From the sequence record PV682554.1: a DNA stretch of 64,000 nt. One strand, given 5' to 3'. Of this stretch, positions 651 to 3,349 are shown one piece after another; positions within the stretch are counted from its first letter, which is position 1; every line of letters begins with the position of its first letter. Source of the DNA: Escherichia phage 92CQ. Under the pieces are notes generated by a model, which saw only the letters and a program-made list of their open reading frames with translations, ran no database searches and was not told the DNA's origin. The position numbers were made by a program, and so were the translations under genes.

Positions 651-1544
651 ATGAAAGTTAGTATTCTGCATAGTGTTGACTGTTATGTTACTGATGTAGA
701 CGTTAAAGTGTTTACATTCTCTGGTGGAGAACAACATGTTCAATTAGATACGAACCTGTCGGGTTTCAATCATGCTACAGACAGAATCTTACTCACTTTA
801 GAAGTAAGATCTGCTAAAGACTTGATGACTTTGGTTATGACTAAGAATGCATTGGACAATATGCTATATCATAAACCATATTGTGTTGATTTACTCATGC
901 TGTATGTACCGTATGCACGACAAGACAGAGTGTGTGAGCCTGGAGAAGCATTCGGAGTTAAAGCATTTGCTTCTATAATTAATTCATTAAATTTCTCACG
1001 TGTTATCGTTGCTGATCCACATAGTGATGTTACTCCAGCAGTGTTTGACAGACTCTGTGTAATACCTCAAGAAGAGATTGCTTACGAAACTTTAAAATGG
1101 AAGTTACGTATGGAGAATTTTGCTCTTGTTAGCCCTGATGGTGGTGCTCTTAAGAAAATATTTAAATTATCTAAGAAAATGTCTTTAGATGTGTTCTGTG
1201 CAGAGAAGGTTAGAGATACCGCAACAGGTGCTATTGTTCGTACAGACATTTCTGTACAGGATTTCAATAAGCGTAACCTGATGATCGTAGATGATATCTG
1301 TGATGGTGGTAGAACTTTTATTGAATTAGCTAAAGTGCTACGTGCTCGTAACGCAGGTAAGATTGAGTTGTATGTTACACACGGTATCTTTTCTAAAGGT
1401 CTTAAAGAGTTAAGTGAGCACTTTGACTGCATTCATTCCCTTAATGTGTGGGAAGATAACATCCAAGAAGATTCCGGTGTTCTTGTTAAGAATCAGTCAG
1501 ATTTGCAGCAACAAATTGTATCTCCATACGTGTGGAATTTTTAA
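651..1544 (+). CDS. ribose-phosphate pyrophosphokinase (PRPP synthetase)-like protein; candidate ADPR-PP synthetase of an NAD+ reconstitution module
   Basis: 297 aa; RBS AAGGAG upstream; PRPP-synthetase-type motifs VSPDGG and PRPP-binding loop IVDDICDGGRT. Confidence 0.75.
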   Translation: MKVSILHSVDCYVTDVDVKVFTFSGGEQHVQLDTNLSGFNHATDRILLTLEVRSAKDLMTLVMTKNALDNMLYHKPYCVDLLMLYVPYARQDRVCEPGEAFGVKAFASIINSLNFSRVIVADPHSDVTPAVFDRLCVIPQEEIAYETLKWKLRMENFALVSPDGGALKKIFKLSKKMSLDVFCAEKVRDTATGAIVRTDISVQDFNKRNLMIVDDICDGGRTFIELAKVLRARNAGKIELYVTHGIFSKGLKELSEHFDCIHSLNVWEDNIQEDSGVLVKNQSDLQQQIVSPYVWNF

Positions 1545-1554
1545 ATAATAAGTG

Positions 1555-1583
1555 TTGACAATAGGGAGTATGCTTAGTAAGAT
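1555..1583 (+). promoter_or_regulatory. sigma70-like promoter (TTGACA-N17-TAAGAT)
   Basis: -35 TTGACA at 1555-1560, -10 TAAGAT at 1578-1583, between the Prs-like and NAMPT-like genes. Confidence 0.45.
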
Positions 1584-1615
1584 ACTCCCACACTAACAAA
1601 CAAGGAGACATAACT

Positions 1616-3349
1616 ATGAATATTTTTGCACCTTTTGCTACTGATTGGTATAAACCTGGTCACAAGCAGATGTACAACCAAAATACAAAACTCATTTTCT
1701 CTAATTTAACTCCTCGTAATGATAAAAACTTTGCACACTATGCAGATCGTGAAGCACGTGGTGTCATTGTTTTAGGTATTCGTCGAGCAGTAACCGATGC
1801 TCTTGTAACTATGTGGGACGGCTTCTTTAAAATGTCTCGTAGTGCAGCAGTAAATAAATTTTATCGTATGTCTAAGAATGCATTAGGTGCTTCTGCTCCT
1901 TCTGCTGAGTGTTGGGGTGAATTGCACGATTTAGGTTATCTTCCGCTGGAAGTTCGATCTCTGCCGGAAGGTGTTTTGTGTCCTATTGGTGTTCCTGTGT
2001 TTACTGTGCATAATACTTTAGAAAAATTCTTTTGGTTAACTAACTATGTGGAAACACTGTTGTCAGATGAAACTTGGAAGACAATGACTAATGCCACAGC
2101 AGCTTTTCAGTATAAGCGTATCGCTATGGCATATGCGATGGCAACGTGTGATAATATTGATCACGTTAACTTCCAGTGTCATGATTTTAGCCTACGTGGT
2201 TTAAGTAATATCGAAGATGGTTATAAGAGTGGTATCGCTCACTTGGCATCGTTCACAGGAACAGATAATATTCTGGCTATTGAAACTGTGCATGACTATT
2301 ATGGTATTGATTATGATCAGTTTGTTGCAGGTTCGATTCCGGCAACAGAACATTCGGTAGCAACGACTAACATTGGAGCTATTGTTGAAGATCTGAAGAA
2401 ACATTTCCCACATCTTAAAGATGATGTAGATGGTCTTCGTTATGTAGCAGAAAAAGAGTTTCTTCGTCGTTATATCGAAGAAATTGTTCCAGAAGGTTTT
2501 TGTTCATATGTAGCAGACTCTTATGACTATTGGGCTGTATTGACTCGCATTCTGGTAGAATTGAAAGATTCCATTATGTCACGAAATGGTCGTCTTGTTA
2601 TTCGTCCAGATTCAGGAGATCCGGTTAAAGTTGTTGCAGGATACAATGTTGAATCTTTTGATAACTATGAAGACCTTTTAAATAATGGTATTGCGACAGC
2701 AACTGAAGTAGTTCATTTAGCTGATGTTAATAAGTATTACAATGTTCTTCAGGATTGCAGCGTTGCTGATTGTATTGACGAAACTTATGAGATTCCTTAT
2801 TGTGAAGCAGTAGGTTCTATTCAAATCCTTTGGGAAGTGTTTGGTGGTACTATCAACCGAAAAGGCTACAAGGTTCTTGATCAGCATATCGGTATGATTT
2901 ATGGTGATTCTATTACTGTTGAACGAGAACACGAGATCTTACGCCGACTGAAGAAGAAAGGTTTTGCAGCTTCCAATATTGTATTTGGTGTTGGTAGTTA
3001 TACTTATCAGTTCAATACACGAGATACTTTTGGCTTTGCTGTTAAAGCAACAGGTAGCATCATCGGTGAACACGAAATTTTGGTAAGTAAGGAGCCTAAA
3101 ACTGATCCTGGTAAACGCTCTGCAAAAGGTTTTATTAAGGTTGTTAAGGATACCAATGGTAATCTTTCTCTTGTAGATAATCTTTCTTTTAAAGATATCC
3201 AGGATGAAGACAATGAGTTACAAGTTATCTTCAAGGATGGTAAGGTTATTACACCACAAGTAGAAGGACGTGATGAAACATTCACTGATATCCGCAACCG
3301 TGTTGATGTAGAGGTTCTTCGTACTATGGGAACCATCCAGGTTGACTAA
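1616..3349 (+). CDS. nicotinamide phosphoribosyltransferase (NAMPT/NadV)-family protein; candidate nicotinamide ADPR transferase
   Basis: 577 aa; RBS AAGGAG; NAMPT-family signatures TDWYKPGH, HDFSLRG, FTGTDN, SIPATEHS, RPDSGD, GDSI, FGVGS. Confidence 0.8.
   Translation: MNIFAPFATDWYKPGHKQMYNQNTKLIFSNLTPRNDKNFAHYADREARGVIVLGIRRAVTDALVTMWDGFFKMSRSAAVNKFYRMSKNALGASAPSAECWGELHDLGYLPLEVRSLPEGVLCPIGVPVFTVHNTLEKFFWLTNYVETLLSDETWKTMTNATAAFQYKRIAMAYAMATCDNIDHVNFQCHDFSLRGLSNIEDGYKSGIAHLASFTGTDNILAIETVHDYYGIDYDQFVAGSIPATEHSVATTNIGAIVEDLKKHFPHLKDDVDGLRYVAEKEFLRRYIEEIVPEGFCSYVADSYDYWAVLTRILVELKDSIMSRNGRLVIRPDSGDPVKVVAGYNVESFDNYEDLLNNGIATATEVVHLADVNKYYNVLQDCSVADCIDETYEIPYCEAVGSIQILWEVFGGTINRKGYKVLDQHIGMIYGDSITVEREHEILRRLKKKGFAASNIVFGVGSYTYQFNTRDTFGFAVKATGSIIGEHEILVSKEPKTDPGKRSAKGFIKVVKDTNGNLSLVDNLSFKDIQDEDNELQVIFKDGKVITPQVEGRDETFTDIRNRVDVEVLRTMGTIQVD

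Follow-up and report, generated by a model that had tools for sequence, protein, structure and literature searches.

Two adjacent genes of a phi92-like Justusliebigvirus, an E. coli myovirus, very probably constitute a NARP1 module, comprising Adps and Namat. NARP1 is a published pathway in which these two enzymes generate NAD+ from ADP-ribose and nicotinamide, acting against bacterial immunity that depletes NAD+ (bioRxiv 10.1101/2024.02.11.579819). The DNA analysed is a stretch of 64,000 nucleotides, here termed the window, with a nucleotide identity of 98.8-98.9% to Justusliebigvirus genomes. The first gene, adps (651..1544), encodes a predicted Prs-like ADP-ribose diphosphokinase of 297 aa, and the second, namat (1616..3349), a predicted NAMPT-like nicotinamide ADP-ribose transferase of 577 aa. 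Both are on the + strand, as are the promoter candidates, the hairpin and the protein segments located below, and they are separated by a gap of 71 nt. A preliminary description had placed adjacent Prs-like and NAMPT-like reading frames here, and both are present with exactly these boundaries and with the corresponding family matches. Its interpretation of the pair as NARP1 is likewise supported, by the clade and profile scores of Adps, the clamp motif and NAD+ contacts of Namat, the relationship of the latter to the solved structure 9W5X, the adjacency of the genes and the lack of an NMNAT. On each of these sequence-level features, which separate NARP1 from classical salvage by Prs and Nampt, the pair falls on the NARP1 side.

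Both the NARP1 system and its occurrence in Justusliebigvirus are already in the literature. The finding is not new, because orthologues from phi92, PHB05 and Bas62 were tabulated in the discovery paper (Osterman et al. 2024, bioRxiv 10.1101/2024.02.11.579819), where Table S1 marks their Prs homologues as 'Namat within 10 genes: Yes' and Table S2 marks their NadV homologues as 'Adps-associated'.

The arrangement of the genes is that of NARP1, a Namat-type gene directly following one of the Adps type with both on one strand. The products are 99.3% (Adps, QXV81594) and 99.7% (Namat, QXV81595) identical in amino acid sequence to those of Bas62, and both genes are under strong purifying selection (dN/dS = 0.03-0.13). 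An identical Namat occurs on 14 public contigs, where the order Adps then Namat is likewise present. We also examined a sample of 80 IMG/VR loci with Namat homologues, independent of the window. An Adps-type reading frame was near the Namat homologue in 80/80, at a distance of up to about 2.1 kb and mostly directly adjacent, while NMNAT was found in 0/80. Family, clade and motif membership can be read from the sequence itself, as can the gene arrangement, the selection and the absence of NMNAT. The pair heads a phage cluster on the + strand that has an early appearance.

Adps matches the Pfam families Pribosyltran (1.5e-7) and Pribosyl_synth (1.7e-6), and PHROG 619 'ribose-phosphate pyrophosphokinase' (3.6e-91). 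We compared it with two profiles, one built from 18 labelled Namat-adjacent Adps sequences with the lineage of the window left out, and the other from 8 bacterial Prs. The window protein scored 283.9 bits against the phage Adps profile and 77.9 bits against that of bacterial Prs. All the labelled Adps behave in the same manner, scoring higher on the Adps profile, and all the bacterial Prs do the opposite; cellular Prs reach 467-552 bits on the Prs profile compared with 78 for the window protein. The bipartition separating bacterial Prs from phage Adps plus the window protein was present in 60/60 bootstraps, where support is an explicit count of that bipartition over the 60. The comparison with housekeeping Prs that had been suggested earlier thus comes down on the Adps side, at 284 vs 78 bits. 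A narrower clade of Adps from phages of Gram-negative bacteria, including Bas63, appeared in only 17/60 bootstraps and is not claimed.

The folds and catalytic cores of cellular Prs and NadV are common to the window proteins. In Adps the catalytic lysine is Lys186 (1206-1208), in the same alignment column as K162 of SPbetaL1 Adps and K197 of B. subtilis Prs; identity to the SPbetaL1 enzyme is 35%, over 176 aa only. The sequence DDICDGGRT (aa 214-222, 1290-1316) stands in place of the Prs motif DD(I/M)xDT(A/G)GT, and the Prs motif DLHxxQIQGFF reads DPHSDVTPAVF. Cellular Prs have DLHxxQIQGFF, DTAGT and extra terminal segments, whereas in the alignment neither these motifs nor the N- and C-terminal Prs segments were found in the window protein. 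The Prs equivalog models gave 48-98 bits against cut-offs of 296-536, so that all were failed, and the only Prs model passed was the broad TIGR01251 subfamily (118.5 bits, cut-off 113). Judged by its motifs and scores, Adps is probably not a class I ribose-phosphate pyrophosphokinase (Prs).

Namat matches Pfam NAPRTase (6e-38), PHROG 448 (2e-188) and NF006629 (461.8 bits, cut-off 405). Its closest PDB entry is the Namat of SPbetaL1 (9W5X), both by sequence (5e-118) and by Foldseek (4e-48, TMt 0.93), and the structural comparison proposed in the preliminary description therefore identifies a Namat as the nearest solved structure. The Nampt-type core is intact. D10, Y12, F191, R194, D217, H246, R330 and D332 are all present and invariant in alignments A3 and A4, including the catalytic His246 (2351..2353) within ATEHS. 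The same residues are NAD+ contacts in SPbetaL1 Namat (9W5X/9W5W; Lan et al., NAR 2026), and the further contacts G430-D431, G460-S461 and T468-R469-D470 are also kept. Every residue that contacts NAD+ in 9W5W has an identical or conservatively substituted counterpart here; changes from SPbetaL1 to the window protein are Arg40 to Lys37, Phe392 to Tyr462, Tyr396 to Phe466 and Ala362 to Ser432.

The selectivity-clamp helix (SCH) of Namat has the consensus GS-X-phi-X-phi-X-phi-TRD (PMC12774641), which is fitted by GSYTYQFNTRD in the window protein (aa 460-470, 2993..3025). Tyr462 and Phe466 stand at positions 3 and 7, those that stack on the adenine, and both clamp positions are aromatic in SPbetaL1 Namat also. 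Within the subclade there is an aromatic residue at position 3 in 46/46 sequences and at position 7 in 43/46, and all 67 of the 67 readable IMG/VR motifs have serine at position 2 followed by an aromatic residue at position 3. The equivalent segment of Nampts that are proven or linked to NMNAT reads GGGLLQQLDRD (D479), GGGLLQEVTRD (PTP25), GGALLQKVDRD (Xcc 7yqo) or GAQTYQRNTRD (H. ducreyi NadV, 9ke8), in a negative set that is small at five Nampts. In H. ducreyi NadV (HdNadV) the adenine-stacking positions are taken by Gln and Arg, and position 2 by Ala instead of Ser.

The selectivity-clamp loop (SCL) has the core N-D-K-N-F (aa 35-39, 1718..1732), in which Lys37 aligns with Arg40 of SPbetaL1, and the loop is 6 residues longer than in SPbetaL1. 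By the rule used, position 3 is Arg, Lys or Tyr, and the auxiliary adenine-stacker is position 3 if this is Arg and otherwise position 4. Lys37 fits this rule, and position 4 is the non-aromatic Asn38, compared with a stacking Trp in Bas63. The loop departs in this way from the SPbetaL1 and Bas63 enzymes alike, a point against the assignment. In the subclade, K37 and F39 both show conservation of at least 90%; position 4 may be L, N, Y, H, W or I among Adps-linked homologues. We considered whether Asn38 disqualifies the protein as a Namat, and rejected this because the position varies across the 80 Adps-linked homologues. Overall similarity was rejected as a sufficient classifier of Namat and Nampt, since HdNadV, a true Nampt that forms NMN, scores 342 bits with the window protein compared with 398 for SPbetaL1 Namat. 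The assignment as Namat therefore depends on the clamp residues and the Adps partner.

The NAMPT-like protein had been described as 90-100 aa longer than is typical. This is correct, as it has 577 aa compared with 473-498 aa for Nampts and short Namats. The excess consists of two folded inserts, of ~87 aa in total, both of which are lacking from the 491 aa Namat of SPbetaL1. Insert 1 (aa ~253-282, 2372..2461) is part of a helical hairpin and has no counterpart in the alignment with SPbetaL1 and FADO Namat and Nampts. A structure model of this region has helices at 246-263 and 271-290, with block pLDDT of 85-92. Insert 2 (aa ~343-399, 2642..2812) is a small alpha/beta subdomain that ranges from 47 to 93 aa in relatives and has a longer form in Bas63. 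The extra length was rejected as a novelty, given that both inserts are also found in the Namat of phiR1-37 and in the validated Namat of Bas63.

NAD+ restoration or a defence phenotype has been demonstrated for Bas63, FADO and the transplanted NARP1 of SPbetaL1 only. Bas63 lacking genes 79-80 is sensitive to SIR2-HerA, an effect that is independent of host pncC or nadR, and ADPR-PP was detected. This appeared only with the defence system present, and the deletion mutants plate normally on defence-free hosts. Deletion of NARP1 from FADO renders the phage sensitive to DSR2. The Adps and Namat of SPbetaL1 carry out both reactions in vitro, with no PRPP-synthetase product from Adps; biochemistry of Adps exists for SPbetaL1 and DyoEdafos only. 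Namat of SPbetaL1, P. foliorum and DyoEdafos converts ADPR-PP and nicotinamide into NAD+, in preference to using PRPP. By analogy with these homologues, both chemical reactions and the anti-defence phenotype would be expected of the window pair. Compared with the enzymes validated by experiment, the Adps of the window is only 34-36% identical and the Namat only 38-39% (38% to that of FADO), and all the validated phages are outside Justusliebigvirus.

The NARP1 genes 79-80 of Bas63 (JohannRWettstein, Felixounavirus) resemble the window pair in gene order, strand and short gap (45 nt vs 71 nt), in combining an Adps-clade kinase with a long-form Namat carrying both inserts (593 aa vs 577 aa), and in the absence of NMNAT. 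The SCH is GSYTYQYMTRD compared with GSYTYQFNTRD here, and SCL position 3 is Lys in both. The two lineages differ at the level of the phage family (Ounavirinae vs Stephanstirmvirinae), the proteins are only 36% (Adps) and 39% (Namat) identical, and the window protein has an insert 2 that is smaller by about 30 aa. An initial assumption that the window might be Bas63 itself was rejected on the basis of that phage's genus and of these identities.

These data bear on an alternative function of the pair in classical nicotinamide salvage, whereby a true PRPP synthetase and a true Nampt would make NMN, to be converted by host NadR/PncC into NAD+ for replication. The generic models TIGR01251 and NF006629 name the pair in this way with the scores given above, most GenBank annotations agree, and the true Nampt HdNadV is closely related to the window Namat. 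Yet the validated Adps and Namat of Bas63 receive identical generic labels, and thus the labels do not discriminate. The failure of Adps at all the Prs equivalog cut-offs, its lack of Prs motifs and terminal segments, its position in the Adps clade and the Namat-type clamp motif all argue against salvage, as do the pncC- and nadR-independent phenotype of Bas63 and the missing PRPP-synthetase product of SPbetaL1 Adps. We therefore regard this function as extremely unlikely. The preliminary description had kept classical salvage as a possibility. That caveat is fair only to the extent of a side activity, since in vitro Namat still makes NMN from PRPP (PMC12774641). A dual use that is compatible with NARP1 would have Namat also making NMN from host PRPP at a useful rate in normal infection. 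This is unlikely, as ADPR-PP was strongly preferred in competition experiments and no phage NMNAT to complete the route was found in the window or the rest of the Bas62 genome.

In a Pfam scan of 65 further reading frames of the window, no match to CTP_transf_like, NUDIX, Macro or RyR was obtained. Using the D479 phage NMNAT-Nudix as seed, phmmer returned nothing NMNAT-like below E = 0.9 in six frames of the window and the rest of the Bas62 genome. The earlier observation that the window has no NMNAT is borne out by both searches, and it extends through the remainder of the near-identical Bas62 genome. NARP2 (Nampt plus NMNAT-Nudix, in KVP40-like phages) resembles the window pair in having a NAMPT-family enzyme and in raising NAD+ against depletion. 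However, its Nampt has 473-477 aa and a GGGLLQ-type SCH-equivalent, is 33% identical to the window Namat over the N-terminal 340 aa only, and is linked to a CTP_transf_like and NUDIX protein that is absent here. With no NMNAT found and an SCH of the Namat type rather than GGGLLQ, the pair probably does not belong to NARP2.

Accessory NARP1 genes (Adpp, RyDEP) were sought beside the pair and none was found; the neighboring reading frames 3421-3642 and 3823-4089 gave no Macro or RyR match in Pfam. In phiR1-37 the gene g069 lies between Adps and Namat, and it has no Pfam match. The core of Adps and Namat is common to the window, to NARP1-AP (Adps-Adpp-Namat, Vibrio phage Gary) and to RyDEP-associated NARP1 (phage DyoEdafos). 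Unlike these, the window operon contains neither a Macro-domain phosphatase (Adpp) nor an RyR-domain glycosidase (RyDEP), and so it belongs to neither extended form. Cleavage of the aRES type produces ADPR-1''-phosphate, and since no Macro phosphatase or RyR glycosidase is encoded in or near the operon the module is predicted to be blind to it.

In the proposed NARP1 mechanism, a host NADase-type defence (SIR2-HerA/Nezha, DSR, type I Thoeris, SEFIR, Kongming, SPARSA or similar) would split NAD+ into ADP-ribose and nicotinamide. Adps would pyrophosphorylate ADPR at its ribose 1''-OH, with ATP as the donor, to form ADPR-PP. Namat, using its Nampt-type core, would then exchange the pyrophosphate of ADPR-PP for nicotinamide, forming NAD+ directly with neither an NMN intermediate nor an NMN adenylyltransferase. 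The adenine of ADPR-PP would be held by the aromatic clamp, made up of Tyr462, Phe466 and the loop with Lys37 and Phe39, and ADPR-PP would thereby be preferred over PRPP.

The same chemistry could instead serve a housekeeping role, either recycling ADP-ribose and nicotinamide released by NAD+-consuming or ADPR-processing enzymes of the phage itself or sustaining NAD+ during infection by a phage of large genome. In the genomes of relatives there are genes for a Macro-domain protein, a YbiA/NADAR-like protein and a member of the SIR2 family (Pfam SIR2, 3e-22), and AntiDefenseFinder places NARP1 mostly in non-mobile bacterial DNA, suggesting housekeeping roles there. But the SIR2, Macro and NADAR-like genes are not adjacent to the pair. 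The Macro protein lies ~80 kb from it, in a region deleted from the genome of the window, where the Macro cluster is wholly absent and yet the pair is intact and constrained. Together with the dependence of ADPR-PP on the defence system in Bas63 and the normal plating of its deletion mutants on defence-free hosts, this makes a housekeeping role very unlikely. The window lacks 15.9 kb present in all relatives, with the apparent junction at 56,564/56,565, resulting in an in-frame fusion ORF; neither the deletion junction in IMG/VR nor the fusion protein in the assembly index was found.

The preliminary description also gave each gene its own sigma70-like site, and candidates do lie upstream of both, as consensus matches only. 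That of adps, TTGACT-17-TAGAGT (583..611), is weak with 9/12 matches, and is preceded by an AT-rich tract. Its -35 and -10 hexamers are unchanged in Bas62 and outra, with one spacer substitution in outra. The candidate of namat, TTGACA-17-TAAGAT (1555..1583), has 10/12 matches and lies inside the 71-nt gap. The pattern TTGACW-N16-18-TAAGAT occurs at 3 sites in the 64 kb compared with 0.17 expected, at 1555, 3342 and 3763, all on the + strand and directly upstream of consecutive genes. Relatives whose proteins are as little as ~49% identical still have the TTGACW box of the namat candidate. With host-type promoter candidates in front of both genes at the start of the cluster, the two enzymes would be available before NAD+ depletion bites. 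A G/C-rich hairpin (GGGAGUAU...AUACUCCC, 1564..1589) overlaps the -10 candidate of namat, and has no U-tract after it. Its folding energy is -12.9 kcal/mol (z = -4.26), and 0/200 shuffles fold equally well. In KP2025, L013, L014, L015 and L017 the arms are changed in sequence with pairing kept, i.e. by compensatory changes.

The inserts, the clamp loop with no aromatic residue at the stacking position, and the separate promoter candidate and hairpin of namat might confer a regulation peculiar to this lineage or a change in the range of substrates, though we consider this unlikely. Other ADPR derivatives may then be accepted, or the pair may be coupled to the SIR2, Macro and NADAR proteins of relatives in a phage-run NAD+/ADPR cycle.

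The main value of assigning the pair to NARP1 is in annotation. No NCBIfam model is dedicated to Adps or Namat, and the pair is named ribose-phosphate pyrophosphokinase and nicotinate/nicotinamide phosphoribosyltransferase by the curated models of NCBIfam, Pfam and PHROGs and in almost every GenBank record. One relative's record labels the Adps homologue "baseplate wedge protein". A simple and reliable rule for re-annotation is provided by the clamp motif in combination with an Adps partner. Since the operon has no Adpp phosphatase, phi92-like phages are predicted to be exposed to aRES-type systems. By analogy with the validated homologues, phi92-like therapeutic coliphages would be expected to resist SIR2-HerA, DSR, Thoeris-type and similar NAD+-depleting defences.

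The window carries two adjacent open reading frames at exactly the coordinates of the preliminary description, a Prs-like ORF of 297 aa (651..1544, +) and a NAMPT-like ORF of 577 aa (1616..3349, +), separated by 71 nt. In Pfam the first hits Pribosyltran and Pribosyl_synth and the second NAPRTase (6e-38); among the PHROGs they hit 619 'ribose-phosphate pyrophosphokinase' (3.6e-91) and 448 'nicotinamide phosphoribosyl transferase' (2e-188), respectively. The dN/dS of the pair is 0.03-0.07 inside the genus and 0.10-0.13 against the pair of a Klebsiella phage (61% and 73% identical). 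An identical 577-aa protein is found on 14 public contigs, in the same arrangement. [quoted passage not shown] This reading is very probably correct, being supported by the profile and clade of the first protein, the clamp motif of the second and the lack of an NMNAT gene.

We compared the Prs-like protein with a profile of 18 labeled Namat-adjacent phage proteins from Table S1 of Osterman et al., leaving out the lineage of the window, and one of eight labeled bacterial Prs from the same table. It scores 283.9 bits with the Adps profile and 77.9 bits with the Prs profile. All labeled Adps score 256-336 and 31-120 bits respectively, and all bacterial Prs 81-125 and 467-552 bits. The bipartition of bacterial Prs from phage Adps plus the window protein was recovered in 60/60 neighbor-joining bootstrap replicates, placing the protein on the Adps side rather than with housekeeping Prs. 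Lys186 aligns in the column of the catalytic K162 of SPbetaL1. In place of the Prs motifs DLHxxQIQGFF and DD(I/M)xDT(A/G)GT the protein has DPHSDVTPAVF and DDICDGGRT, like other Adps, and it lacks the Prs segments at both termini. The protein falls far short of the NCBIfam Prs equivalogs (48-98 bits against cut-offs of 296-536). No Adps structure was found in the PDB, where the nearest match is Prs at ~1e-15.

The top PDB matches of the NAMPT-like protein by sequence and fold are 9W5X and 9W5W (5e-118; Foldseek 4e-48, TMt 0.93), the SPbetaL1 Namat structures solved by Lan et al. (NAR 2026, PMC12774641). Selectivity there is attributed to a clamp comprising a helix with the motif GS-X-phi-X-phi-X-phi-TRD, in which X is aromatic at the third and seventh positions and stacks there on adenine, and a variable loop (PMC12774641). 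The helix motif of the window protein is GSYTYQFNTRD (aa 460-470), close to the validated Namats of SPbetaL1 and FADO (GSFTYQYNTRD) and Bas63 (GSYTYQYMTRD), but unlike NMNAT-linked or proven Nampts (GGGLLQQLDRD in D479, GGGLLQEVTRD in PTP25 and GGALLQKVDRD in Xcc). Every NAD+-contacting residue of 9W5W is kept or conservatively replaced. In the clamp loop, Lys37 at the third position is permitted by the published rule. The fourth is Asn38 in place of the stacking Trp of Bas63; this position varies (L/N/Y/H/W/I) among 46 subclade members and 80 Adps-linked homologues. In the alignment of the 46 subclade members, conservation of Phe39 is 90% or more. The NMN-forming Nampt of Haemophilus ducreyi, HdNadV, with the motif GAQTYQRNTRD, comes close behind Namat in overall similarity (342 versus 398 bits). 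Similarity by itself is therefore not enough for the assignment, which is based on the clamp residues and the Adps partner.

The ~87 surplus residues lie in two inserts, at aa ~253-282 and ~343-399. An AlphaFold2 model (pLDDT 91.3, pTM 0.91) folds both confidently, the first as part of a helical hairpin and the second as a small alpha/beta subdomain, which is poorly conserved and ranges from 47 to 93 aa across relatives. The Namats of Yersinia phage phiR1-37 (54% identical) and Bas63 (593 aa, with a longer insert 2) share both inserts. We therefore rejected the extra length as a novelty; it is a trait of the subclade.

A scan of IMG/VR gave 80 loci with Namat homologues of 38-99% identity. In all 80 an ORF preferring the Adps profile lies within ~2.1 kb, mostly directly adjacent, and none has an NMNAT or Prs-type ORF. 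Of the 67 readable motifs, all have Ser at position 2 and an aromatic residue at position 3, and 56 have Y, F or H at position 7. In the window, 65 further ORFs matched only structural and replication families in Pfam, with no match to CTP_transf_like, NUDIX, Macro or RyR. An NMNAT-Nudix seed from D479, confirmed by Pfam as CTP_transf_like + NUDIX, found nothing below E = 0.9 in the six window frames or the rest of the Bas62 genome. Classical salvage, giving NMN from Nam and PRPP, would fit the similarity to HdNadV, yet the clamp and the Adps partner oppose it and it is very improbable as the main function. A side activity making NMN from PRPP is plausible. The small ORFs downstream (3421-3642 and 3823-4089) belong to neither the Macro nor the RyR family, and with no such neighbor the NARP1 module is, judged by gene content, the plain form rather than NARP1-AP or the RyDEP-extended form. 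In phiR1-37, the closest relative outside the genus, Adps and Namat are separated by g069 (L006:4311-4964; 217 aa), which has no Pfam match at E <= 0.01 and may represent either a NARP1 accessory not yet described or a diverged form of Adpp.

Each gene had been assigned its own promoter. Both sites are candidates, that of the second gene (1555-1583, +; TTGACA-17-TAAGAT, 10/12 matches) standing beyond chance and that of the first (583-611, +; 9/12) being weak. TTGACW-N16-18-TAAGAT occurs exactly three times in the 64-kb window against 0.17 expected (1555-1583, 3342-3370 and 3763-3792, all +), each time just 5' of one of a series of consecutive plus-strand genes. The three look like an early-promoter family with one start per small gene. 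Within the namat candidate lies a G/C-rich hairpin (1564-1589, +; -12.9 kcal/mol, z = -4.3) that lies 8-10 nt past the TTGACW box, overlaps the -10 candidate and is not followed by a U-tract. Its arms vary in sequence yet still pair upstream of the Namat genes of Klebsiella phage KP2025 (L011) and four other relatives (L013, L014, L015 and L017), which points to retention via compensatory changes. It resembles the promoter-plus-stem-loop cassettes described in T4-type phages. The hairpin may be a 3'-end stabilizer of adps mRNA, an attenuator or an operator. Directly after namat, preceded by a promoter-like site, is a 73-aa ORF (3421-3642, +) with two CxxC pairs, whose counterpart in KP2025 carries the label of a TFIIB-type zinc finger, and then a hydrophobic, single-helix 37-aa ORF (3656-3769, +). 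An array of 16 tRNA genes (4097-6873, +) lies immediately 3' of the cluster. Within it a perfect 178-bp direct repeat (4619-4796 and 4924-5101, +) doubles tRNA-Ser(GCT) (4652-4737 and 4957-5042, +) where Bas62 has a homing-endonuclease gene.

The window lacks ~15.9 kb (Bas62 47,155-63,026; 27 genes) carried by 55/55 relatives. The junction (56,564/56,565) is blunt, without microhomology, and removes the stop codon of a bas62_0076 homologue, creating an in-frame fusion with the bas62_0048 glycosyltransferase (55,880-57,514, -; 545 aa). The junction was not found in IMG/VR, nor the fusion protein in the assembly index; the gap may mark a deletion mutant, natural or of laboratory origin, or an artefact of assembly. 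In Bas62 the region includes an overlapping cluster of Macro (3.8e-7), ComF-like PRTase (1e-41) and HAD hydrolase genes, along with NrdD and NrdG of the anaerobic ribonucleotide reductase. Other parts of the Bas62 genome code for a SIR2-family protein (3e-22) and one resembling YbiA/NADAR, and the genus therefore has several NAD+/ADPR-handling genes besides NARP1 (Bas62 L007:6868-9083 and L008:3890-4702, both -, outside the window). The UvrD/Rep-family helicase gene of the window (58,813-60,585, -) has no intein around 59,757-59,790, whereas that of Bas62 has one of 1,041 nt at the corresponding site.

Both genes are labeled 'hypothetical' in several records, and the KP2025 Adps homologue (L011:2334-3227; 61% identical, 297 aa) is labeled 'baseplate wedge protein'. 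Neither Adps nor Namat is modeled in NCBIfam release 20. When the pairs of the window (651-3349) and Bas63 (L002:22747-25455) were compared with NCBIfam, both Namats passed the equivalog NF006629 'nicotinate phosphoribosyltransferase' and both Adps only the broad TIGR01251. Automated annotation can therefore be expected to go on mislabeling NARP1. The match of both window proteins to PHROG 12872 (547 positions) is probably explained by FJ373894_00125 of Shigella phage Ag3, catalogued in Table S1 of Osterman et al., an Adps N-terminus joined to a Namat C-terminus; the fusion may be genuine or an artefact of sequencing.

The region is 96.6-98.9% identical in nucleotide sequence to 55 complete phi92-like E. 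coli myovirus genomes (Justusliebigvirus, Stephanstirmvirinae), including the BASEL phage Bas62/JohannJBalmer, whose proteins are 99.3% and 99.7% identical. NARP1 was first found in another BASEL phage, the Felixounavirus Bas63/JohannRWettstein (Osterman et al., bioRxiv 10.1101/2024.02.11.579819). In that study Bas63 lacking genes 79-80 was sensitized to SIR2-HerA, and the wild type partly restored NAD+; the effect required neither pncC nor nadR of the host. ADPR-PP was seen only with defense system and operon together, and the SPbetaL1 homologues carried out both reactions in vitro, ADPR + ATP to ADPR-PP and ADPR-PP + Nam to NAD+. NARP1 was present in 859 phage genomes (4.3% of the set). The Prs homologues of phi92, PHB05 and Bas62 are marked "Namat within 10 genes: Yes" (Table S1) and their NadV homologues "Adps-associated" (Table S2) (bioRxiv 10.1101/2024.02.11.579819). 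AntiDefenseFinder includes NARP1 as an HMM-defined system. NARP1 in Justusliebigvirus is therefore already on record, and we infer that the phi92-like phages would share the ADPR-PP chemistry and the counter-defense phenotype.
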